DNA of 64,000 nucleotides from an uncultured Verrucomicrobiota bacterium (GTDB taxonomy: Bacteria > Verrucomicrobiota > Verrucomicrobiia > Opitutales > UBA9783). The notes under the pieces are model-generated. The model was not told the origin of the DNA, did not search any database, and saw only the letters and a program-made list of their open reading frames with translations. Shown one piece after another: positions 19,745-55,735 of this stretch (the first letter of the stretch is position 1; each line of letters starts with the position of its first letter). The DNA is taken from assembly GCA_902495005.1 (NCBI GenBank), contig CABUVL010000005.1, positions 21,131-85,130 on the forward strand. Reading direction: 5' to 3'. The position numbers and the translations under genes were made by a program.

Positions 19745-20101
19745 TTACAAGCTCGTTTTAAAATCAAATTGGTATTTTGTAAAATCGTCGAAATCGTCAG
19801 AGTCGTTACGACGTAAAACTTGAAATTCAACGAGATGACGTACAATTTGTCCGACATCTTTGCATTGATAGAGACCCCAGGATTGCAGGACATCGAGGGC
19901 CATGCAACCAAAGGATTCCTGGGCAAAATCTTTAAATCCTTGAAGAAGATCTTTGGCGGAAATGTGTTGCGTCGGACTTACCTGCAAACGTTTTCCGGTA
20001 AAGCCCAGTGCATTGTAAACAAAGAGGTAGGCGCCGCGCTTGTAAGTGGGATATTTACTCCTTATGTTATCAATGACCGAAAGCAATTGAGGATTTTGCA
20101 T
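19745..20101 (-). CDS. Conserved hypothetical protein, resembles the PVC-group Minf_1886-like family
   Basis: 118 aa. The pattern HISAKDLLQGFKDFAQESFGCMALDVLQSWGLYQCKDVGQIVRHLVE matches my recollection of that family. The assignment is from memory only. Confidence 0.4.
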   Translation of the reverse strand: MQNPQLLSVIDNIRSKYPTYKRGAYLFVYNALGFTGKRLQVSPTQHISAKDLLQGFKDFAQESFGCMALDVLQSWGLYQCKDVGQIVRHLVEFQVLRRNDSDDFDDFTKYQFDFKTSL

Positions 20102-20247
20102 ATTACCCTAACTAACTTATTTATAATGCTTAAGGCAAGATTAATTGCATTAAATGGTCACCGGTGTGAAGACGTTAGCGTCTGCCTGTAAGCCGAAGGT
20201 CATAGCGTCGTCCCACTTACCATAATTGACTGCTAATCAAAAGATTT

Positions 20248-21957
20248 ATGAATAAAAAGCTTGCGTTATGCTTGAGGGACGGTATCATAAGTACATGGAC
20301 ATTAACGGCTCAACGGCTCAACGGCTCAACGGCTATAATAAGGCATAATGCCCTTTTAGGCTCTCTTTTATTTTATTTGTTTGGATGGATTTCCAGCTAC
20401 GCTTATACGCCTCCGTTTAAGTATAACACATTTTCCTTACTTAATACAACCTACATTCGTGATGGCACTACGTGGCGAGACTCCTTTTATTCAGCTTTAG
20501 GAAGTTGGGAGAAGTGCTTTCAAAGTTATCGACCCGGTTTTATGCTTGATTCTGATGGCACTTTATATGCCGTGTACTCAGATTGGGCAGGTGGTTTTGG
20601 AGGTAAAACTTATTATGTTATGAAACGAGGAGTCCCTAAGGAAGTCGGTGGTTATAATAGTAGCACTGATGTTTGCTCGGGTTTTTATTTTGATGTCGAT
20701 GAACTGCTAGGTTGTAAGGGTACTTGGACTACTGAAGTGAATTTTCGGAATGACACCGAGAAACAAAATTTTCAAAATTGCGCCTGGTTGACTTTAACGC
20801 CGCAGATTGCTCAACCTAGTGGTTCATCCTCTTATATACACACTATGATTTATATTTTGCCTCGCTGTTATTGGGATGCATCTAGTAGCGAAACCAAGGG
20901 ACGTTTCTTATGGTGCAGAATTAATAAAAGTAATATGACCATTCAATGGTCGGAAAGTTTTACTGAAGAGAAATATGGAAATGCAATGTCTTTCGGTGGC
21001 TTTCCAAAAATTGGGACAGTGAACAGTAGGCCTTCTCATTTAGCTTATTTGAATGGAAATCAACTCGATTGGTATTGGATAAATATGCAAGGCAATTACA
21101 ATATGTTGTGTAGAGGACGGATTAACGTTGCGGCGAGTCAGACAGCCTTTGTTGAAAGTTTTAAGACCTTACATGGTCAGGATGAAAACTGTTCTTTGGA
21201 GAAAGTAATGAAGGTTGATGGCCAAGTTTACCTTCTCGTAATTAGCTTAATTTGGGGTACAGATCGACAGTTGTTTATCTATAAAATAAATTCAGCAGGA
21301 AGTTTTGAATCTTCTTTTGGTAGTGAGTATTTCCTCGACTGTAGCCAAAAAAGAGAATTCGGAAGTGGATGCCCTTTACAGGTAGGTGCATCATCTATTT
21401 ACCATGCGGATATGAATATAGTTGATGGGATTTATTTGGTGATGAAATTCGAATATGGTGATGACATTAATCTTTATCACCTTGGGACTTCTAAGTCTTA
21501 TTGGAATGCCAATTACTTATCATGGAGTATAAATAGATTGGTATTACTTATAAGTTCAAATGATGGTACAAATAGTGACAATTGGTATGTACACCCTGAA
21601 AATATCATTTATGTAACAAATGAAATTGTATGTTCAGACGCATTGTGTAAAAATACACACAAGTTTGTAGTTTACAAAGATTACATTATCTACGCGTACT
21701 GTTATCCCGGTAAATCTAAACAACTTATTTTGGGAGCGGCGAGGTATTATATCGATAAAGATAAGCATCTTCATTTGATGACAAAGACGGAATTTCGAGA
21801 CAAGGATGGCAACAGCTTTGGAACATTGACGAATTGTGATAGACTCGTTTTTATGGATATTAAGAATGGTCACTTGTGGCTTGCGTGGATGGCAAGCTAT
21901 CTGGAAGTGTATTATATGTACGTCAACGCCCAAGATGTTATCGACGCAAGTGTGTAA
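20248..21957 (+). CDS. Cys-rich secreted hypothetical protein, paralogue A of a two-member family in this window
   Basis: 569 aa. A hydrophobic h-region LLGSLLFYLFGWISSYA is followed by YTPPF. It is full-length collinear with the 54095-55735 product, and the last ~100 aa are roughly 70 percent identical by hand alignment. GC content is lower than in neighbouring core genes, by eye. Confidence 0.75.
   Translation: MNKKLALCLRDGIISTWTLTAQRLNGSTAIIRHNALLGSLLFYLFGWISSYAYTPPFKYNTFSLLNTTYIRDGTTWRDSFYSALGSWEKCFQSYRPGFMLDSDGTLYAVYSDWAGGFGGKTYYVMKRGVPKEVGGYNSSTDVCSGFYFDVDELLGCKGTWTTEVNFRNDTEKQNFQNCAWLTLTPQIAQPSGSSSYIHTMIYILPRCYWDASSSETKGRFLWCRINKSNMTIQWSESFTEEKYGNAMSFGGFPKIGTVNSRPSHLAYLNGNQLDWYWINMQGNYNMLCRGRINVAASQTAFVESFKTLHGQDENCSLEKVMKVDGQVYLLVISLIWGTDRQLFIYKINSAGSFESSFGSEYFLDCSQKREFGSGCPLQVGASSIYHADMNIVDGIYLVMKFEYGDDINLYHLGTSKSYWNANYLSWSINRLVLLISSNDGTNSDNWYVHPENIIYVTNEIVCSDALCKNTHKFVVYKDYIIYAYCYPGKSKQLILGAARYYIDKDKHLHLMTKTEFRDKDGNSFGTLTNCDRLVFMDIKNGHLWLAWMASYLEVYYMYVNAQDVIDASV
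20304..20334 (+). repeat. Tandem 8-bp repeat AACGGCTC x3.9 inside the 5' end of paralogue A
   Basis: Read directly: aacggctc aacggctc aacggctc aacggct. The unit length is not a multiple of 3. It lies between the ATG (20248) and the signal-peptide-like segment. Confidence 0.95.
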
Positions 21958-22196: not shown

Positions 22197-22430
22197 TCAT
22201 AATGCAAGATTGGGAAATTGCTCTTGTTGAATATCTTGTTCATCAATTGATTGATGAGCTAATAAGTGGGTATGAGTGGAGCTTGGAAACACAGTCACGC
22301 CTAGTTGGGAGAGGTGATGAAAACGTAGCTCTCTTTTGGTTATCAATGAATCTTTTGCATTTTCTGTTGTTAAGGAATTGAGCAATGTGGAAAATGTTTT
22401 CGCACTTCTGCCTTCATTATTGAAAGACAT
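22197..22430 (-). CDS. Hypothetical small ORF downstream of the lipase-like gene
   Basis: 77-aa ORF on the same strand as the lipase gene, separated from it by a hairpin. No recognisable motif, so coding status is uncertain. Confidence 0.25.
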   Translation of the reverse strand: MSFNNEGRSAKTFSTLLNSLTTENAKDSLITKRELRFHHLSQLGVTVFPSSTHTHLLAHQSIDEQDIQQEQFPNLAL

Positions 22431-22494: not shown

Positions 22495-24348
22495 CTATTG
22501 GTTGATAAAATATTCTTTCTTTGTGTAATAAGTGTCGGCCCGTTCAACACAGGTTTGCAGATCGTAAGATGGGAGATTTACTTGAAAAAATGAGTCCAAC
22601 TCAGCCTTTTCTTTTCCATCTTTACCTAAATAAAGGTTGACTGCATAGCTGCCGAAGTGTTGGGAGGAAACAAATGGAATCAGGCCTCCACTGCTTTTAA
22701 TAGCCTTTATCAAATATTTTGTGGCTTTAAGTGAGTGATAACGCATTTTTGTTTCCTTGAAGAACTTGCTTTGTCGGTGTGCATAAAAATATTCTTCTTG
22801 TGCTTGAGTTAAGAGCTGATTGATACGTCCGGAAAGTTTACTGTCGTTCAGTAATTGTTGAAAAGTGGAACGCTCTCTATTTAATTGCTTAAGGTAGGCC
22901 TCCTTATTCTCCACGACATATTGCCCCTTGTTAACGTCACTGATAAAGTTATCAATCGTGTTTATGTTCAATGCGTAATATTTTCGCAAGAGGTCGACCG
23001 TATCTTCAAAGGCCCAATGGGTTAATGTTTCATAACCGTAATCGCAATTACAAATTAACTTGGCGATGTTGATGTAAGCTTTGTCAAAAAACGTGGCAAC
23101 GCCATTGACGATAATTTTTGCAATCTTCAGAAAGACAATTTTGCTTGGATCTTTTTCAATGTTGTGCCCGAGAGGTAAGTTGGTGACAATGTCCATAACG
23201 CTGCTGTACCCGAGCATATTGTTTACGCCGATGACATTTTCATACACTTCCCGCGTGTACGTATTTCCCCACGCCCGTGTGGGTGAAAAAAAGATACCGT
23301 AGGTCAAGTTGAAGATTTTGTTGTCAAAATTTGGACCGTACAAGTATTCGCCGATTTGAGTCGTTATGTCGGCAATTGTTATTTGGGCTATGCCGCCGCC
23401 TTGGCTGTGTCCCGTGCAATACACTTGAAAGGTACACTTGCGTGCATTATCAACAAAGTCTTTCAATGCTTGGCCGCTTAAAGCTTGCACTCCTTTAGAC
23501 TGCTCGGAAAGAATTTTGAAAGAATCTTGCTTTAATTCTTTGATGAGTAATTTTTGTATTTTTCTGTGGAGAGAGGGGCGAAAAGATAAAAATTTATTAC
23601 AATACCCCTGATGAAAACAAAGCGCTTCCTTGCCTTCAGATAAAAATTTATTGGGGATGCCAAGCTCGCTGGCTTGAATGCTCTTGTGGGCGCCATCAAA
23701 GTTACTGAACCAACTGGCACCGGCATTGCCTTGCAAGGGTTGAAATTTTTCACCTTGTGAACCTCGTAATGTGACAAAAATGTCAATGTGCTTCCAACCA
23801 TTGGCTTCGGGGGTTATTTTATAAGCTAAAAAGCCAGGGTAATCAATTTCAGTGTTTTTCCCTGCCCCTTGTTGTCCTACGAAGGGGGACATTGATATAA
23901 TCCCCGTGTTCTTTAACCATTCTGTTTCCGGAGAAGTCCTTCCGTCGATATCCCCGAGCTCGTTGTACGTGTATTGTCCTGCACTGGTCCGTTTTGTATT
24001 GGCGTAAGCGTTGGCATTTAAATAGGCCAAAACAAAACATTTATCCGCTGTTAATTCAGAATTTACAATGCGTTTTCCCGTTTCTTGACGGATCAGCGGC
24101 TTTGTTGATGTTAACGCCGATTTCTGCAGAATGAATGCAGACGTCCCATCTAGGCTTTCATTAAACGACGCGTTTTCTACTTTGGTGGGCTGATCGGCAA
24201 ATAATTTGTCAGGGGTGTCGTCGAAAAATACGTCTTGAGCGTCCCATGGGGTTTCAGTTGCCAGTATTGTCTCATTTGGGAAGGCAAGGTTTATGAGCAC
24301 AAGGGCGGTACTTAATTTTGTCAGCTTTTTATGAAATACTTTCATCAT
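22495..24348 (-). CDS. Secreted alpha/beta-hydrolase, lipase (class 3-like)
   Basis: 617 aa with an N-terminal signal-like segment (KLTKLSTALVLINLAFPNETILA) and a nucleophile elbow in VYCTGHSQGGGIAQI. The C-terminal ~200 aa have no recognised motif. Confidence 0.6.
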   Translation of the reverse strand: MMKVFHKKLTKLSTALVLINLAFPNETILATETPWDAQDVFFDDTPDKLFADQPTKVENASFNESLDGTSAFILQKSALTSTKPLIRQETGKRIVNSELTADKCFVLAYLNANAYANTKRTSAGQYTYNELGDIDGRTSPETEWLKNTGIISMSPFVGQQGAGKNTEIDYPGFLAYKITPEANGWKHIDIFVTLRGSQGEKFQPLQGNAGASWFSNFDGAHKSIQASELGIPNKFLSEGKEALCFHQGYCNKFLSFRPSLHRKIQKLLIKELKQDSFKILSEQSKGVQALSGQALKDFVDNARKCTFQVYCTGHSQGGGIAQITIADITTQIGEYLYGPNFDNKIFNLTYGIFFSPTRAWGNTYTREVYENVIGVNNMLGYSSVMDIVTNLPLGHNIEKDPSKIVFLKIAKIIVNGVATFFDKAYINIAKLICNCDYGYETLTHWAFEDTVDLLRKYYALNINTIDNFISDVNKGQYVVENKEAYLKQLNRERSTFQQLLNDSKLSGRINQLLTQAQEEYFYAHRQSKFFKETKMRYHSLKATKYLIKAIKSSGGLIPFVSSQHFGSYAVNLYLGKDGKEKAELDSFFQVNLPSYDLQTCVERADTYYTKKEYFINQ

Positions 24349-31555: not shown

Positions 31556-31633
31556 GGTGGTTGTAGCTCAATTGGCTAGAGCACTGGATTGTGGTTCCAG
31601 GGGTTACCGGTTCGAGACCGGTCTACCACCCCA
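31556..31633 (+). tRNA. tRNA-His (anticodon GTG), CCA encoded
   Basis: Hand-folded cloverleaf with the extra G-1 pairing with C73, D stem GCTC/GAGC, anticodon stem CTGGA/TCCAG with loop TTGTGGT, and T arm ACCGG-TTCGAGA-CCGGT. There is one T-T mismatch in the acceptor stem. Confidence 0.9.
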
Positions 31634-34876: not shown

Positions 34877-35264
34877 TGGTGGAGGTGGCGGGATTTGAAC
34901 CCGCGTCTTCTGCACATTTAATTAAAGCTTCTACAAGCTTAGTACATTTTGGGTTGTCCACATTAAACCCGTATGCACACGTTTTTAATGTGTAAGTGAT
35001 AGAAAATACGATTGGAAATTACCACACTTTCCAATTATACTCGCTGAGTGAGCTTTTAAAATTAAGCGAGCATCCATTTTAAAAGCAGAATTGCATCTAT
35101 AGGCAATTCATACGATATCCTAAGCAGCCATCGCCAAGGAGGCGCTTGGGAATTTTACTACATTGTTTTCATTTATTTGTAAATGGATTGATAACGAAGC
35201 CAACCATCATCTTCGGCCTGCCACTTTAATTATACATTACAAAATCGAATCCAATAACACCCCC
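34877..35264 (-). ncRNA. ssrA: tmRNA (SsrA)
   Basis: 5' end GGGGGTGTTATTGGATTCGA and 3' end GACGCGGGTTCAAATCCCGCCACCTCCACCA. The acceptor stem carries the G3-U70 alanine identity pair. An internal tag frame ends ...VVKFPSASLAMAA then TAG. Confidence 0.92.
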
Positions 35265-36615: not shown

Positions 36616-38880
36616 TTAAGAATTGCTTGTCGTCGGGGTACTCGACTGCGTCTTTGTAAGCCCATTGCGCAGGCGTTCTTTGAGGGTCGTGCGTCGAATA
36701 GAACTATCGAGCGTACGAACGGCAATGCTGTAGGCTTTCGGGTCGCCCACAATGAATACGTGCTTACGTCCTCTTGTGACCGCCGTGTACAGTAAGTTTC
36801 GTTTTAACATAACGAAATGTTGCGTGAGGAGCGGAATCACCACAATGGGAAATTCACTGCCTTGCGATTTGTGAATGCTGATCGCGTAAGCCAACTTTAA
36901 GTCCAGGCATTCGAGCCGCTCCAATATGTGTTCCTCATTGTTGAATTGCACCATGAGCTGTTCTTCAGCGGTGTCCACATGCGTGACAATTCCCAGATCT
37001 CCGTTAAAAATATTTTTGTCGTAGTTGTTTTTCAGCTGTATGACCTTGTCGCCCAAGCAAAATGTTTGACCGCCTACCTTTAGTCTTGGCCTATTTTCTC
37101 CGGATTTTTTTTGGAAGAGCGCGTTAATATTTTCAATGCCCGATTCTCCGCGATGCATGGGTACCAGAATTTGTACATCCTTGAGCGGATTTATCTTAAG
37201 CGATTGGGGCAATTGCTCCCAGCAGAGTTTTTCAATGGTTTGAAGCGCCTGTGCGGGGCCATCTATGCCGATAAAATGGAAATCTTCCTCAAAATTTGTC
37301 AATTGATTGGGCGATTGAATGGGGGCTTCCAAGGTGCGTTTGCCACTCAAGATGTTGTAGGCCGTGGTCACAATTGAACTTTTTTGCCCTTGCCTGTAAA
37401 TTTCTTTGAGGGATTCGACCTGAAAGTAATTGCTGTTTAAGAGGTCGTTTAAGACATTGCCGGGTCCAACAGACGGCAATTGATAGATGTCGCCGACAAA
37501 TAGTACGTGTGCCGCATCGGGTAAGGCACGCAGCAAGGCGTGTGTGAGGTGAATGTCGAGCATACTCGCCTCGTCGACAATCAAGTAATCGGCAGGCAAT
37601 AAGTTTTCTTCGTTGTAAGAGAATCCACCGATGGAGGGCTCGTATTTCAAGGTCCGATGGACGGTCCGCGCCTCGTAGCCGGTGGCTTCTTGCATGCGTT
37701 GTGCGGCACGACCCGTTGGAGCGGCCAAGTACAAACGGACGTGTTTTGCCAGTAATACGTGTATGAGTGCTCGAAGCAGGGTTGTTTTACCCGTTCCAGG
37801 ACCCCCGGTCAGGATGGAAAGCTTTGAACTTAGAATGGAGTGCAGTGCCTTTTTTTGCGTTTCAGACCAGGTAATGTGAAGTTGATTTTCTGACCAGATT
37901 AAAGCTTTGTCGATTTGTATGGGGGGTAGGGAGGACGGCGCCTCATGCAGACGACGAATGTGTTTGGCAATAGAGGCTTCTCCAATGGCCATGCTGGGCC
38001 TTTGCACCAATTGAGATGGCGGATATTCGTTCAGTCGATCATCTTCGAGGAGAATGGACAGGCGTTGCTTGATCCGTTCGCTTGAAACATCGAGTAATTC
38101 GGAGGTCTTTTGCGCAAGTGTCGTGATGGGTGCACCTGTGTTGCCGTCAGATTCCGCTTCCATCAGTAGGTAATTTATCCCCGCGTCAATTCGAAAATCT
38201 GCGTCGTTGGCAATTCCTAAATTGAGCGCGATCTTGTCGGCGGACTTAAACCCGATACCGTCGATACTTTGAACGATGACGTAGGGATTATTTTTTACAA
38301 TTTCTTTTGTCTTTGCGCCGTACTTTTGAAATAAACGTAAACATTGTGTGCTGGTGAATCCGTAGGTTTGCAAAAAAATCATCACATCCCGGACCGCCTG
38401 TTGCTCATCCCAGGCTTTTTTTATGCTCTGAGCGCGTTTTATGCCAATCCCGGGTACCTCTTGCAGGCGTGCGCTGGCATTGTTTAAGACGTCAAATGTG
38501 CGTAATCCAAAAAAATCTACAATTTTATTGGCGTACACGGAGCCGATTCCGTGAATGAGCCCACTTTTTAAATATTGGCGAATGCCATGCAAATTCGAAG
38601 GTAGCTCAGAGGTGAATTCGACGCATTGCAATTGTTGCCCGTATTGGGCATGTTTAATCCAAGTGCCTTTGACGGATAAAGTCTCCCCACATTGGACCGT
38701 GGGAAAGTACCCCGTGATGGTGATCGTCTTTTTCTCTTTCGCCAGAGACAACAACCCCACCGTATAACCATTGTCTTGATTGTAATAAAGTACGCTTTTT
38801 AAGACCCCCTTGAGGGATACAAGTTCATCATCAGCATTTGAACTCGCATCCGCTGAAGGTTCTCGTTGTTGGAAGGTCAT
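36616..38880 (-). CDS. recD2: RecD2-like SF1B ATP-dependent DNA helicase
   Basis: Walker A LTGGPGTGKTT, Walker B LIVDEASMLD, LVGDIYQLPSVGPG, and C-terminal AISIHKSQGSEF and YTAVTRGRK. The N-terminus has HhH-like repeats. The start overlaps the greA stop (TAATG). Confidence 0.88.
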   Translation of the reverse strand: MTFQQREPSADASSNADDELVSLKGVLKSVLYYNQDNGYTVGLLSLAKEKKTITITGYFPTVQCGETLSVKGTWIKHAQYGQQLQCVEFTSELPSNLHGIRQYLKSGLIHGIGSVYANKIVDFFGLRTFDVLNNASARLQEVPGIGIKRAQSIKKAWDEQQAVRDVMIFLQTYGFTSTQCLRLFQKYGAKTKEIVKNNPYVIVQSIDGIGFKSADKIALNLGIANDADFRIDAGINYLLMEAESDGNTGAPITTLAQKTSELLDVSSERIKQRLSILLEDDRLNEYPPSQLVQRPSMAIGEASIAKHIRRLHEAPSSLPPIQIDKALIWSENQLHITWSETQKKALHSILSSKLSILTGGPGTGKTTLLRALIHVLLAKHVRLYLAAPTGRAAQRMQEATGYEARTVHRTLKYEPSIGGFSYNEENLLPADYLIVDEASMLDIHLTHALLRALPDAAHVLFVGDIYQLPSVGPGNVLNDLLNSNYFQVESLKEIYRQGQKSSIVTTAYNILSGKRTLEAPIQSPNQLTNFEEDFHFIGIDGPAQALQTIEKLCWEQLPQSLKINPLKDVQILVPMHRGESGIENINALFQKKSGENRPRLKVGGQTFCLGDKVIQLKNNYDKNIFNGDLGIVTHVDTAEEQLMVQFNNEEHILERLECLDLKLAYAISIHKSQGSEFPIVVIPLLTQHFVMLKRNLLYTAVTRGRKHVFIVGDPKAYSIAVRTLDSSIRRTTLKERLRNGLTKTQSSTPTTSNS

Positions 38881-40736
38881 TATTTGGACCAACGTGCAAT
38901 TTGACGAATTTGCAAAACTTGTTCAGAGGGTAATTCTACAGTATCGCCAACAACTTTGCCCAATAATTGAGAGGCCAAAGGAGTTTGGTAGGACAGAATA
39001 TTTTTCTTGGGATCGCTGTCCCATGCCCCGAGAATTGTGTATTGTACCTCTTTACCTTTTTGATCCGCCAATGTGACGACAGAGCCGATGCTAACTTTAT
39101 CCAAAGGCGTCTCTTCAAATTTAATGACTTGAACACGCGCTAAATCTTGCTCAATTTTTGCCTTACGTGCGAGTAAGACGTCTTGATCTTGTCGGGCCAT
39201 TTTGTACTCAGAATTTTCACGCAAGTCGCCCAACTCTCTCGCCGCCGCAATGGCAATCTTGTTGGCCGGAATTTTTTCGGAAATGAGTGATTCATACTCC
39301 TTGCGAATGGCATCCAAGCTCTCTTGAGAAACAAATAGACGTTCTTCAGCCGAGTGCTCTTTTTTCTCCGTGAGCGATTGAAGTTCAGGGAATACCCGAA
39401 TGAAACGTGCCATGATGGAACGTTTTTTGAGCGTATCGAACCCTTGATTCAAGAGAAGACTACGCGCCAAATCTCGTGCCAGATCGAAGCTTGCGTCTTT
39501 CAACAGCACCGCTATGAGATCGTGATCTTCGTTAACGGCATCCACAAGTGGAATGCGTCGTCCTGGATTTGTATTGAGTGCATCGATGTCAATGGCTTGG
39601 AAAATCGCACTCAATAGGCGTGGGTTGAGCAAGCCCGAAATTAAATTTTGATAATGCGGCATTTCACGGTGCTTAATAATCCAAATAAGCACGGGGCTCT
39701 TTAAGGATTGCTCTTGTAACCATTTTTGTAGGGTTTCTTTCAGAAGCGACTCGCAATCCCTTTCGAGCAAGAAATTAATGCATTCTACCGTAAAGCGACC
39801 ATTGCTGTGCTTAAAAAGGTGCAATACGACGTGCTTCCATTCTTCGGGTGTTTGGTAGGTGCGCGTTAAGAGATCCAAGAAGCGAGGATAGTAGACGTGA
39901 GGCAACTGCTCTGCCAACTCGGACAAGTTTTCTGTGCTCAAGATGATCGATTGCGACGTGGGTTGTAATTCTTCGACACGTTCGTGAAGGTAACGGGCCA
40001 AGTTGTTGCGTACCCAGCAACCTTCGAGCCTTTCTGCGGCAGACAACTGCTTTGCATTCTGTATGGCTTTGGTCAAATCTTCCAAAATCTGTGGCAGGTC
40101 GTTGCGAATGACATCGATACTGTCGGCCAGTTGATATAATTTTGTGGCCAACGCAATTTTTTCCAAGGGCCTCCGTGTGAGGTAAAATTCCTCTAAAATT
40201 TCTTGTTCGGGCAAGATGGGCTCGCTGCGCAATTGATACACATCGTGTTGTTTTTTCTTAGGTGTTGCGATGCGTGGGTCTTTTACCATTAATTTTTGAG
40301 CTTGCATCCACCATTTTTTATATTGTTGTTCTGTCAAGATCATGGACAGGACATGCCTTAATAAGGATTCAAGTTCCAAGTAAGTGGCGGAGGTGTTGCG
40401 ACATCCTTGTAAGACTTTTACGATTAAGTCGCAGGGATGTTCTTTACTCATCTTGAGAATTTCTTCTGGATGTTTTCTGGCTTCAACCAAGACGTTGTTT
40501 TCGTCGATGAACGTTAGCTTTTGCACGCAAAAAATGGGATCCATCGTACTTGCTTGATCTTGCGTCTCAAATTTAATAATGACGCGATTGGCGACGTCGT
40601 CATACTTTTCAATGCAACCTACCCCCCAACTATGGTGCCAAAAATAATTGCCTGGTTCCAAGGCTTCAAAAATTTGGCGCTTTGACTTCAATTGGGGATT
40701 TTGTTCCAGAATTAAATCGATTGCTTCCTTATTCAT
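38880..40736 (-). CDS. greA: GreA-family transcript cleavage factor with a ~460-aa N-terminal extension (chlamydial long GreA)
   Basis: The C-terminal ~155 aa, ARELGDLRENSEYKMARQDQDVLLARKAKIEQDLARVQVI...GSVVTL...YTILG, are GreA-like. The long N-terminal extension is a known feature of chlamydial GreA. Confidence 0.8.
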   Translation of the reverse strand: MNKEAIDLILEQNPQLKSKRQIFEALEPGNYFWHHSWGVGCIEKYDDVANRVIIKFETQDQASTMDPIFCVQKLTFIDENNVLVEARKHPEEILKMSKEHPCDLIVKVLQGCRNTSATYLELESLLRHVLSMILTEQQYKKWWMQAQKLMVKDPRIATPKKKQHDVYQLRSEPILPEQEILEEFYLTRRPLEKIALATKLYQLADSIDVIRNDLPQILEDLTKAIQNAKQLSAAERLEGCWVRNNLARYLHERVEELQPTSQSIILSTENLSELAEQLPHVYYPRFLDLLTRTYQTPEEWKHVVLHLFKHSNGRFTVECINFLLERDCESLLKETLQKWLQEQSLKSPVLIWIIKHREMPHYQNLISGLLNPRLLSAIFQAIDIDALNTNPGRRIPLVDAVNEDHDLIAVLLKDASFDLARDLARSLLLNQGFDTLKKRSIMARFIRVFPELQSLTEKKEHSAEERLFVSQESLDAIRKEYESLISEKIPANKIAIAAARELGDLRENSEYKMARQDQDVLLARKAKIEQDLARVQVIKFEETPLDKVSIGSVVTLADQKGKEVQYTILGAWDSDPKKNILSYQTPLASQLLGKVVGDTVELPSEQVLQIRQIARWSK

Positions 40737-41098
40737 GGTAATATTACGAACCTAGGTAATTTGTAAATAAAATGCAAGCATTTAGAAAAAATCTCCACCG
40801 TTACCTGGTAAAATTTTCTCATTACTTGCTTTTGTTAAGCCAATGACATTGTATCTATGCAAAGCATAAGCCATCGGAAATACCGTCTTATCTCATTAAT
40901 TGAGCTTACAGCCAATGGGCTCCGGTCTTATTATATATAGAAGAAAGAACTCGCCCCGTGTTTTTAGTAGCAATAAAGTACGTATATCAATAAAACACAC
41001 ATAGTTTATTACGGTGAGGGACAGCTTACAATTTACGCATGTGCATGCAAGTTGCAATCTCGCACGTACCCTCCATTAAATAGGCCGAATGTCCTGCC

Positions 41099-42190
41099 TT
41101 AGACGTCTAAATTCTCTTCTTTATTGTCTGAGAAGGCGCCTTTGGCCAGAACCATGCCGCCGGAAACGCGAACTTTGTCGATAATCGCCCGCATGGCCTC
41201 TTCCATGACCGAGGGATTTTCTTTTAAGTACGTCTTGGCAGCTTCGCGTCCTTGCCCAATGAGATTGCCTTTGTAAGCCACCCAGGAGCCCTTTTTCTCA
41301 AAAATTTGATGTTCAATACCGAGGTCGATGACGGAGGAGGCTTGAGAAATGCCTTCGTCGTACATAATGTCAAATTCACATTCCGTGAACGGGGGAGCTA
41401 CTTTGTTTTTGACGACCTTAAGCCGGGTTCTGTTGCCGACAATGCGACCGGACGCGTCCTTCAGTTGGCCGATACGTCGAATGTCCATGCGAACCGAGGC
41501 AAAGAATTTCAACGCTCTACCGCCTGTAGTTGTCTCTGGACTGCCGAACATAACGCCGATTTTTTCTCGGATTTGATTGGTAAAAATGCAGATGCATTTC
41601 GACTTATTGATGACGGACGTTAAGCGTCGCATGGCCTGACTCATCATGCGAGCTTGCAAGCCTACGTTCGTATCTCCCATCTGGCCGTTGAGTTCAGCTT
41701 TCGATACGAGTGCGGCTACGGAATCCACAACAATTACTTCAATGGCACCGGAGCGGATCAAGGTTTCTGCAATGTTGAGGGCGTCTTCGCCGCTTTCAGG
41801 TTGAGAGACGATCAAATTGTCGAGATCAACACCCACCACCTTGGCATAACGAGGATCGAGGGCATTTTCCACATCTATAAAAACGGCCCTGCCTCCTTGC
41901 TTTTGCGCCTGCGCTATGATGCTGAGACACAAGGTCGTCTTTCCCGACGATTCGGGACCAAAAATTTCACAAATACGGCCGCGTGGCAATCCGCCGACAC
42001 CCAAGGCAAGATCAATGGCCAGCGAACCGGTTGATATGACAGACACATCCATTTTGGCCGTGTTTCCCATGCGCATGATGGCGCCTTCGCCGAATTGCTT
42101 GTTGATGGCCGCAATTGCTAACTCAAGCGCTTTATCCTCGATGTGAGTTTCGCCCGTCTTCTTTATTGCCTTCGCTTGTGTAGAATCCAT
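41099..42190 (-). CDS. recA: Recombinase RecA
   Basis: [22 protein letters not shown], Walker [11 protein letters not shown], and the [10 protein letters not shown] motif. Confidence 0.97.
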
Positions 42191-49870: not shown

Positions 49871-49945
49871 GCCCGTGTGGTGTAACGGTCAGCACGGTAG
49901 GTTCTCATCCTACAAATCGCAGTTCGATTCTGCGCATGGGTGCCA
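49871..49945 (+). tRNA. tRNA-Glu (anticodon CTC), CCA encoded
   Basis: Hand-folded: acceptor GCCCGTG/CATGGGT (two G-T pairs), anticodon stem GTAGG/CCTAC with loop TTCTCAT, and T arm CGCAG-TTCGATT-CTGCG. Confidence 0.8.
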
Positions 49946-54094: not shown

Positions 54095-55735
54095 TTGGTT
54101 GATTATTCTAACTTGGTGGGCGTGAGTCTTAAATATAACTTTTTTTTGGCTATTCTCTTGATTTGTTGCGGTACCGCCGTTTGGGCTTACACACCTCCAT
54201 TTTACAGTAAGTGTAAGTTTTCTAATTATTGTTGGCCTATTTATTGGTCCATTAATTCTGGAGATAAGACTGCGATTAATCCAAGTTTTATGGTAGATCA
54301 CAATGGAGATTTATTTTACGTGGGTCCGGATCCCGGAAGTGGCTTTGGTAGTGTATTTTTTTTAGTGAAAGTTACAAAAGAAGGAACTTATAATCATAAA
54401 GCTGTATACCCTTATCAATGTGCAGGTTATGCTGTAAGTTTAGATACAACAAAGCTTTCTAGTTCAGATAAACAACGGCTTTGGGTTAATTTTACCCCGT
54501 CAGTTGCATACGAGTCGGTTGAAACAGATTATGTTTATGTTGTCTTTTACGTTTTACCAAATAGGTTCAGTGCTTCTGGGACAACCAATGAAGGCTTTGT
54601 GTTTATGAAATTTAGAAAATCGGATTTGGATCTGGCTGGAGATCACTCTATGAGTTCAGTTGCAAGCAAGTTTGTAAATTTCAGTGATTCTTCTTTACTT
54701 AAATTTTCTTCTTCAACGTGTGGATATGTGACTGAATTTTGTTACTCAGGTTTGCCACCCTTTAATAACTGTACTATTAATCAATGTTGTTTCCTCGCTT
54801 GTGTTAATAATGATGCGGTATCCGTGTATTACACTAATGATTACAATTCAAGTTCTGCGAACACAAATAGTTTTGGATTAAGAGAGGTGGCATGCTCAAC
54901 AGATCTTAGTGCCGTAAAGTCTATGAGAAGTGATACCGGTGGGTGGGAGACCAGTACTCCGCGAGCTTTGAAACGAATATTAACTTATGAAGGTAGTACT
55001 TATTTATTAATAGTAAATGCGGGGTGGTTTTTAAGATTTTTTAAGATAGTGCCTTCCGTATCAATGAGTTTTTGCAGAAGTTGTTATTATTACGGTGCTT
55101 ATATGCATACGATAAGTTGGACCACGAGTGATTGTAGTTACGATGGTGATATGGGAATAGTAAAGGCTAACGATGGAACTATAATAGATCTTGGTTTGCA
55201 GTTATCTTGTTCATATCATATTAAAAATTCGACTTGGTCAACGGATAAAATATCTTCGGATACAATGAATAATAAAATTGTTTTGTTTTTACAATCTGGA
55301 AGTTCTTCAGTGCCTGATTGGTCTGGCTATTGGTACGGTGGCCCTGAGAATATTATTTATGTATCTGGTGTAAATAAGTATGGAGGAAGTATAAATTCGA
55401 GTACTTGCTCAGAGGCAACCTTGTATAGAAATACATACAAGTTTGTGGCTTACAATAATTACATTATCTATGCGTATTGTTATCCGGGGAGAACAAAGCA
55501 ACTTATTTTGGGGGCTGCAAGGTATTATATTGACTCACAATATCAAGTTCATTTATTGACGAAGACAGAATTCAGAGATAAAGATAACAACAGCTTTGGT
55601 ACGCTGACAAATTGCGATCACCTCATGTTTATGGATGTTAGAAATGGGCACTTGTGGTTGGCTTGGATGGATACCAACAATTATATTCGCCACATGTACG
55701 TTAAAGCTCAAGACATTATCGATGCGTGCTACTGA
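54095..55735 (+). CDS. Cys-rich secreted hypothetical protein, paralogue B
   Basis: The likely true start is GTG 54122, giving the signal peptide MSLKYNFFLAILLICCGTAVWA followed by YTPPF. About 20 Cys. The C-terminal block YKFVAYNNYIIYAYCYPGRTKQLILGAARYYID...TKTEFRDKDNNSFGTLTNCD...NGHLWLAWM is shared with paralogue A. Confidence 0.75.
   Translation: MVDYSNLVGVSLKYNFFLAILLICCGTAVWAYTPPFYSKCKFSNYCWPIYWSINSGDKTAINPSFMVDHNGDLFYVGPDPGSGFGSVFFLVKVTKEGTYNHKAVYPYQCAGYAVSLDTTKLSSSDKQRLWVNFTPSVAYESVETDYVYVVFYVLPNRFSASGTTNEGFVFMKFRKSDLDLAGDHSMSSVASKFVNFSDSSLLKFSSSTCGYVTEFCYSGLPPFNNCTINQCCFLACVNNDAVSVYYTNDYNSSSANTNSFGLREVACSTDLSAVKSMRSDTGGWETSTPRALKRILTYEGSTYLLIVNAGWFLRFFKIVPSVSMSFCRSCYYYGAYMHTISWTTSDCSYDGDMGIVKANDGTIIDLGLQLSCSYHIKNSTWSTDKISSDTMNNKIVLFLQSGSSSVPDWSGYWYGGPENIIYVSGVNKYGGSINSSTCSEATLYRNTYKFVAYNNYIIYAYCYPGRTKQLILGAARYYIDSQYQVHLLTKTEFRDKDNNSFGTLTNCDHLMFMDVRNGHLWLAWMDTNNYIRHMYVKAQDIIDACY

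Follow-up and report, generated by a model that had tools for sequence, protein, structure and literature searches.

A variable octanucleotide repeat ahead of the signal peptide as a probable phase switch for a putative secreted beta-propeller protein in an uncultured Verrucomicrobiota bacterium

The window analysed here is a 64-kb stretch of DNA (64,000 nucleotides) from an uncultured Verrucomicrobiota bacterium. It contains a gene, here called gene A, that carries a tandem array of an 8-bp unit between its start codon and its signal-peptide-coding segment. This array is most likely a slipped-strand contingency tract that switches the translation of a putative secreted beta-propeller protein between phases, and we give this explanation a probability of about 0.8. 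The gain or loss of one unit changes the reading frame of the gene, the copy number is hypervariable on near-identical genomic backgrounds, and the same module is present on a second paralogue. Coordinates are those of the whole window; L numbers denote loci or contigs, and P numbers denote proteins, in other assemblies. Three features are central to the argument:

20304..20334 (+): octanucleotide simple sequence repeat, (AACGGCTC)3 + AACGGCT, a hypermutable tract with a copy number of 3-27 in other assemblies.
20248..21957 (+): gene A, encoding a putative 569-amino-acid (aa) secreted beta-propeller protein of an unannotated family, the gene that the switch would control.
20335..20403 (+): signal-peptide-like segment, IIRHNALLGSLLFYLFGWISSYA, with a hydrophobic core, and with S-Y-A ahead of the AYTPPF boundary, which is invariant in the family.

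Read directly, the array is three copies of AACGGCTC followed by AACGGCT on the + strand. The initial annotation, made from the sequence alone, had described an 8-bp unit repeated 3.9 times in codons 19-29, and this description is upheld both by the sequence and by Tandem Repeats Finder, which reports period 8, 3.9 copies, 100% matches and a score of 62. This is the top-scoring array of the 64-kb window. Two consecutive units are expected 0.17 times in shuffled sequence and are observed three times, all inside the array. The open reading frame (ORF) of gene A begins with ATG, and a perfect, non-triplet repeat lies within its 5' coding region, as in known contingency loci. The array is without a stop or start codon in all sense frames and codes for permutations of NGSTAQRL. 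The signal-peptide-like segment begins at the first codon after the array. By inspection and hydropathy, the peak of the gene A product is at residues 34-41, with a small-residue motif before |YTPPF. The A|YTPPF boundary is conserved across the gene A family and is the predicted site of signal-peptide cleavage. An Rfam scan at the repeat locus found no RNA family, and a scan of 19900-20450 for sigma-70 promoters and terminators found nothing above chance on the + strand.

The start and stop codons around the array determine what a change in copy number would do. They are as follows:

20248..20250 (+): ATG start, frame 0, in frame with the gene body at 1, 4, 7 and 10 units, including the present 4-unit allele.
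20268..20270 (+): ATG start, frame 2 (MLEGRYHKYMDI...), in frame with the body at 2, 5, 8 and 11 units.
20272..20274 (+): TTG, frame 0, a possible alternative start, homologous to a conserved TGC-TTG-AAG in termite-type homologues.
20295..20297 (+): second ATG, frame 2, reading ATG GAC ATT and then AACGGCTC, six bases 5' of the array.
20303..20305 (+): TAA closing frame 1 at the array edge.
20336..20348 (+): two out-of-frame stops right after the array, TAA 20336-20338 and TAA 20346-20348, which end the out-of-phase frames.

In a simulation of 1-12 units, ATG 20248 and TTG 20272 are in frame with the body at 1, 4, 7 and 10 units, and ATG 20268 and ATG 20295 at 2, 5, 8 and 11. At 3, 6, 9 and 12 units there are no start codons in frame, and the same is true at 27. 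Frame 1 is closed by the TAA at 20303-20305, so that alleles of 3, 6, 9 and further such numbers of units form an OFF class. Proteins called in other assemblies follow the same pattern. The 569-, 577- and 585-aa proteins are called from ATG 20248, while P0001 (573 aa, 8 units) and the product of paralogue C (P0002), described below, are both called from ATG 20268. Simulation and called proteins agree that a change of one unit shifts the ORF relative to the start codons and brings early stops into the wrong frames.

The initial annotation had read a stop on either side of the present copy number, and the simulation recovers both. With one unit fewer, the ATG-20248 frame ends at TAA 20346-20348 after a 30-aa product, and with one unit more it ends at TAA 20336-20338 after a 32-aa product. 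Its further remark, that the stretch from the array to the hydrophobic core is free of in-frame ATG and GTG codons, is correct. After the array, the sole in-frame start-like codon is a TTG that falls within the hydrophobic core, 6 nt 5' of GGATGGATT, so that no ATG or GTG downstream of the tract could bypass it. ATG 20268 and ATG 20295 had been overlooked. Their frame is open through the array, and a one-unit gain that shuts the ATG-20248 frame therefore aligns these ATGs with the body. The proposed phase switch stands in that copy number varies between assemblies, but the one-unit-more state is not necessarily OFF. With starts in two of the three frames, the locus is better described as a licA-type switch with up to three states than as a plain ON/OFF switch.

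The proposed mechanism is as follows. All usable starts would lie upstream of the array, with the signal peptide and gene body downstream. Gain or loss of an 8-bp unit at replication, presumably by slippage, would shift the body among three phases. In the phase of 1, 4, 7 or 10 units the body would be read from ATG 20248, and in the phase of 2, 5, 8 or 11 units from ATG 20268 and ATG 20295. The phase of 3, 6, 9 or 12 units would be startless and would yield short peptides that end at the TAA codons past the array, so that the exported protein would not be made. The variable leader precedes the signal-peptidase site, and the mature protein would thus be the same in both ON phases, though expression level may differ between the two. 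Which of these start codons the cells use is judged here from the sequence. TTG 20272 may also serve as a start, and its counterpart TGC-TTG-AAG in the termite-type homologues sits just 5' of the signal peptide. Switching would probably be reversible within a clone.

The strongest support comes from other assemblies. Alleles were counted on DNA of the gene A locus from at least 10 independent metagenome assemblies, and the copy numbers and the start in frame with the body are:

3 units (L004, L007): no start in frame.
4 units (the window, L001/L149, L153): ATG 20248.
6 units (L011/L152): no start in frame.
7 units (L008/L150): ATG 20248.
8 units (L010/L151): ATG 20268/20295.
9 units (L154): no start in frame.
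10 units (L009/L146): ATG 20248.
27 units (L005): no start in frame.

The unit counts among sequence-verified assemblies are 3, 3, 4, 4, 6, 7, 8, 9, 10 and 27. The initial annotation had named an invariant repeat number across related genomes as evidence that would overturn it; instead, 3, 4, 6, 7, 8, 9, 10 and 27 units occur at the same locus. A further locus, L155, has at least 7 units, with the array at the contig end. The flank comparison covered 1,000 nt on the 5' side of the array and 2,800 nt on its 3' side. Over these 3.8 kb, the alleles differ by 0-6 single-nucleotide polymorphisms (SNPs). The 7-, 8- and 27-unit alleles have 0 SNPs in the 3,800 flanking nt, and the 4- and 10-unit alleles differ by 1 SNP. 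Since the flanks are near-invariant and all three phases occur on one haplotype, the tract must mutate far faster than ordinary sites. Copy number that varies faster than point substitutions among very close genomes is characteristic of contingency loci. The sample names (ZEEV15, CHAT13, NIEL14, HILD21, ASCI21 and 203B_60months) indicate that these are probably human-gut data sets.

The same variation is seen in the protein sequences. The gene A protein belongs to a 90%-identity cluster with ten members. The 569-, 577- and 585-aa variants begin MNKKLALCLR... and have one, two and three NGSTAQRL blocks, corresponding to 4, 7 and 10 units. The 573-aa variant (8 units) begins MLEGRYHKYMDI... and is the one called from ATG 20268. 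These four differ solely by the NGSTAQRL repeats and the start used. Three further variants of 471 aa are called from the internal Met99 and have no signal peptide, and for the 3-, 6-, 9- and 27-unit alleles this 471-aa product is all that gene callers give. Internal Mets are also the called starts of two partial members, which are shorter (181 and 249 aa).

Gene A has two paralogues that serve for comparison, one in the window and one in other assemblies:

54116..55735 (+): paralogue B, 32% identity, GTG start, short signal peptide, no repeat.
20251..20303 (+): leader common to gene A and paralogue C (AATAAAAAGCTTGCGTTATGCTTGAGGGACGGTATCATAAGTACATGGAcATt); farther upstream the two loci are unrelated.

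Paralogue B aligns to gene A from residue 31 of A onward, and its GTG start is directly 5' of the short signal peptide, where A has ATA ATA. One paralogue B protein sequence (P0005) is identical on at least 24 contigs and is indexed in 46 collection blocks. The T8 tract of paralogue B and its sequence are invariant in the six B loci examined in Logan assemblies. Lacking the repeat and being invariant, paralogue B provides a stable internal control. In a B-type orthologue from another species (L156), which has an HPPK/pterin-binding neighbour as B does, a leader/signal-peptide segment of ~60 nt is tandemly duplicated (126-186 and 246-306) upstream of the called start. Its 165-kb contig, that of P0003, was checked for a complete upstream repeat; it ends 340 nt upstream of the gene and has only the duplicated 60-nt leader.

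Paralogue C (P0002, locus L012) adjoins the type III secretion gene yscX. Its leader matches that of gene A from AATAAAAAGC... to the array, two SNPs apart, and its upstream region is missing the equivalent of ATG 20248. The array of paralogue C also varies. In L012 it has 3 units and is in frame with an ATG-20268-type start. In L037 it has 5 units and the C body is in frame with ATG 20248, because L037 joins an A-type upstream region to a C-type body. L003 and L006 have the reverse combination, a C-type upstream region and an A body. All four junctions of upstream region (lactamase-side or yscX-side) and body (A or C) were found when L003, L006, L012, L037 and L148 were compared with window 20100-20420, and C-type leader SNPs are also present at the A locus. 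The junctions suggest recombination, gene conversion or inversion through the shared 50-nt leader and repeat. They could be assembly chimeras, but the array of L003, at 31 nt, is probably below the assembly k-mer (an assumed value, as k is unrecorded), which favours a real event. At the DNA level A and C resemble each other only at their ends, over 193 nt at the 5' end and 327 nt at the 3' end (84% identity). The repeat is carried by two of the three paralogues seen, A and C.

Among the other explanations, the one that fares best is a role that could exist alongside the switch. Steps of three units (4, 7, 10) would each add 8 aa to the leader and could tune export or translation, giving graded output. 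All three in-frame alleles, with 4, 7 and 10 units, are found, and starts in two frames are expected to differ in strength, as in licA. Against this, the prediction is a disordered leader that is cleaved off along with the signal peptide, and we regard such a role as possible but rather doubtful.

A second explanation accepts a hypervariable repeat and denies that it gates translation. Here translation would start at a non-canonical codon downstream, or the array would lie in the 5' untranslated region, and copy number would be neutral or tune the mRNA. Paralogue B, which starts exactly where the array of A ends, fits this explanation. So does the scarcity of ribosome-binding sites: very few of the ~40 long ORFs in the window have a Shine-Dalgarno-like motif upstream, their start regions being rich in A/T, and start codons in this genome cannot be assigned on that basis. 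Other evidence points to a start upstream. The sequence 5' of ATG 20248 is rich in A/T, as is usual for genes of this genome. ATG and GTG are absent between the array and the core, the lone TTG is inside the core, and stops follow closely behind the array in both wrong frames. Both SNPs that separate the A and C leaders (GAC>GAT and ATT>ATC) are synonymous in the ATG-20295 frame. The counterpart of this ATG in the distant homologue L018 is the homologous start ATG GAT ATG AAC, which is followed by an 11-nt repeat and where the order of ATG, repeat and signal peptide is kept. The synonymous SNPs and the homologous start together argue that translation begins upstream of the array. In addition, both C alleles are in frame with an ATG from their own upstream region. 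We therefore consider an ungated repeat improbable.

Several observations do weigh against a phase switch, and the phase counts are compatible with an ungated repeat as well. Of the ten sequence-verified samples, four are in the ATG-20248 phase, one is in the ATG-20268/20295 phase and five have no start in frame. This distribution is indistinguishable from a neutral, uniform one (p=0.27). When similar places are added by called protein length, the counts become 14, 1 and 3 (p=0.0003), for sequences that are unverified and perhaps non-independent. This is only a hint that the ATG-20248 phase is favoured. The n-region of the signal peptide would be at least 33 aa, which is unusually long. Lastly, the 27-unit allele is the least certain, as short-read copy numbers can err for long arrays.

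A third explanation is that the array is a strain-marker variable-number tandem repeat with stable, lineage-specific lengths and that the out-of-frame alleles are dead genes undergoing decay. Each sample has one consensus allele, and OFF alleles are common (5/10 verified samples), as this would predict. The zero-SNP flanks shared by the 7-, 8- and 27-unit alleles over 3.8 kb do not fit stable lineage-specific lengths. Nor do the OFF alleles look like dead genes: their bodies are intact, with 471 aa open and identical to those of ON alleles, and the array is perfect in every allele. A second paralogue also retains the module, as do other species with other units. Pseudogene decay is accordingly very unlikely, slightly more so than the ungated repeat.

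Runs of N span the array in L002/L147, L006 and L148, and the contig ends of L004 and L155 fall on it, which is suggestive of long or heterogeneous arrays that break short-read assembly. The idea that the copy-number differences are themselves assembler errors draws on these gaps and ends and on long arrays exceeding k-mer sizes, but it is hardly credible, since most arrays are 23-79 nt, below read length and, in most contigs, not above the k-mer given in the contig name, different pipelines (k119/k141 names, scaffolds and 'contig_' records) give identical flanks, the 7-unit protein recurs on 4 contigs, several samples have the 4-unit protein, and the six B loci examined do not vary.

The protein that the phase switch would control has no assigned family. 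For neither gene A nor paralogue B did Pfam and NCBIfam scans return one. An AlphaFold model of the gene A product from 31 aligned sequences has a mean predicted local distance difference test score (pLDDT) of 77 and a predicted template-modelling score (pTM) of 0.82; it replaced a poor first model from 5 sequences (pLDDT 55). Residues 1-25 are modelled as disordered, residues 18-50 as a helix and the remainder as an all-beta propeller. Foldseek matches the model to PL24, PL42, GH145 and sialidases at E-values of about 1e-8, but at 7-10% identity, and the target-normalised TM-scores of these best matches are mostly 0.4-0.6. The product is best described as a putative secreted beta-propeller, possibly directed at glycans.

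The divergent neighbour at 19745-20101 (-) encodes a 118-aa protein that scores 107 bits for TIGR04138 (Plancto_Ver_chp or Minf_1886 family; cut-off 60), a family that serves as a marker of Planctomycetes/Verrucomicrobia. The exact protein is indexed in 157 assembly-collection blocks, and the organism must therefore be common in public data. Relatives of gene A are restricted to metagenome-assembled genomes (MAGs) of Puniceicoccales/Opitutales in a search of species-representative genomes. A Chlamydia/Pmp reading of gene A was rejected on these grounds: there is no Pfam or NCBIfam match, the relatives occur only in those MAGs, and the neighbour is TIGR04138. By the same evidence the organism is probably an Opitutae-like member of the Verrucomicrobiota. 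Downstream of gene A, a 617-aa gene at 22495-24348 (-) resembles class-3 lipases only weakly (E 4e-4, below cut-off) and belongs to no NCBIfam family. In all assemblies a conserved 59-aa ORF (22202-22381) separates this gene from gene A. Elsewhere in the window, a 618-aa protein at 38880-40736 (-) combines a GreA domain at its C-terminus with a long N-terminal extension, and matches long 'GreA/unknown domain fusion' models below cut-offs. There is a full-length tmRNA at 34877-35264 (-), with 149 bits, and there are two tRNAs, at 31557-31630 (+) and 49871-49942 (+). GC skew is positive in all 2-kb bins whatever the gene strand, except in 40001-42000 (-0.029). The G+C fraction is lower at the paralogue regions (0.385 at 20-22 kb and 0.356 at 54-56 kb) than elsewhere (about 0.45).

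The closest known system is licA (lic1) of Haemophilus influenzae, in which a (CAAT)n repeat is associated with three initiation codons distributed over just two of the three frames (PMC2212159). In both systems a non-triplet repeat at the 5' end of an ORF lies downstream of several starts in two frames, and copy number decides which start, if any, is in frame; the frame logic is the same. The licA unit is 4 nt and the product is a cytoplasmic choline kinase, whereas the unit here is 8 nt and the array precedes the signal peptide of a putative secreted beta-propeller. The hosts also differ, Haemophilus on the one hand and, on the other, an uncultured gut bacterium of the Planctomycetes-Verrucomicrobia-Chlamydiae (PVC) group whose proposed switch is known from sequence alone. 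The opa genes of Neisseria reportedly have (CTCTT)n in the signal-peptide-coding region (Stern et al. 1986). They resemble the present locus in that the repeat lies in the leader-peptide-coding part of a recombining family of exported paralogues with conserved ends and variable middles. The counterpart here is that A and C are similar just at their ends and that mixed combinations of upstream region and body exist. In opa the unit is 5 nt and codes for the hydrophobic core, and the product is an outer-membrane beta-barrel. Here the 8-nt unit is ahead of the core, starts are in two frames, the product is modelled as a beta-propeller, and not every paralogue has the repeat.

Octanucleotide GCATCATC repeats are found upstream of hmw1A and hmw2A in H. 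influenzae biogroup aegyptius (PMC3309571). These share with gene A an 8-nt unit, a copy number that varies between strains and an association with a surface protein, which is putative for gene A. They are in a putative promoter, so that their effect is transcriptional, in contrast to an array in the coding leader that would act by frameshift. Surveys accept octanucleotide tracts as candidate phase-variable tracts (PMC7383803). The initial annotation had called an octanucleotide switch unusual, and such units are rare, though known, as the GCATCATC arrays of hmwA illustrate. Poly-G tracts in the pmp genes of Chlamydia, the comparison drawn in the initial annotation, give slipped-strand homopolymer variation in autotransporters. 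As is proposed for the array in gene A, they vary the frame in surface-protein paralogues of a PVC-group bacterium. The pmp tracts are homopolymers in autotransporter genes, whereas the gene A protein lacks both Pmp and autotransporter domains and its genome is not that of a Chlamydia.

An exhaustive profile search of the gene A family gave only 68 cluster representatives, most of which match just the conserved C-terminal 100-150 residues. Distant homologues in termite-type Puniceicoccales MAGs have perfect, non-triplet repeats of 7, 8 and 11 nt at the 5' end:

L013, 1-58: AGACCCA x8.3, at the contig edge, frame open into the gene.
L015, 1-94: CCTCAAGA x11.8, at the contig edge, frame open into the gene.
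L016, contig start: CCTCAAGA, at least 14 copies, at the contig edge, frame open into the gene.
L018, ~2480-2516: TCTTACAAGGG x3.4 (11 nt), directly after ATG GAT ATG AAC and before the signal peptide.

The contigs L013, L015 and L016 end exactly within the repeat. Long open upstream regions with a degenerate 8-aa periodicity (xLEPxxRL) are present in L014, L015 and L016 and look like decayed octanucleotide arrays.

Arrays of at least 3 AACGGCTC units are also found on 119 environmental metagenome contigs (L021-L139) of the Joint Genome Institute, with GC of 0.33-0.74. The sole match to the gene A family among them is L037, and the other 118 are unrelated to it. By a crude test of ORF geometry, ~30 of the 119 have the array at the 5' end of a long ORF. 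In one example, ATG-ACGGCTC-(AACGGCTC)5 precedes a lipoprotein-like signal peptide, and some arrays are just 5' of prepilin-type N-terminal motifs (GFSLLEMIV, GITLIELLI). Named examples include L092 (2749), L063/L043, L127/L079/L053 and L085. Some contig pairs resemble one gene with different array lengths: L063/L043 (37 vs 29 nt), L107/L115 (45 vs 61) and L105/L036 (60 vs 76). A wider, as yet undescribed habit of the PVC group is a tentative idea to which we give somewhat less than even odds. It would comprise an Opitutae beta-propeller family that keeps re-invented 7/8/11-nt repeats between start codon and signal peptide, a leader through which gene bodies recombine between two promoter regions, and AACGGCTC arrays at unrelated genes. 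If true, the AACGGCTC arrays at lipoprotein- and prepilin-type genes of unrelated contigs, some of them allelic pairs, belong to the same pattern.

Most known repeat-driven contingency loci belong to a small number of host-adapted pathogens, among them Haemophilus, Neisseria, Campylobacter and Helicobacter, and phase variation in gut commensals is usually ascribed to DNA inversions. A literature search for repeat-based phase variation in Verrucomicrobiota found no report. The mechanism is an established one, and what is new is the lineage, the gene family and the length of the unit. Public metagenomes alone are enough to reveal every phase of the candidate octanucleotide switch on a single haplotype of an uncultured bacterium, which is probably from the human gut, judged by sample names. 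There are practical consequences as well. The array explains assembly breaks at this point in this organism, and annotation should be treated with caution, as gene callers record OFF alleles as 471-aa proteins without a signal peptide. The array provides a concrete locus at which within-host bacterial bet-hedging can be tracked at the read level. It points to a secreted protein family, of unassigned function, that is under fluctuating selection in the gut, where the selective agent may be, for example, phage, host immunity or a glycan niche.

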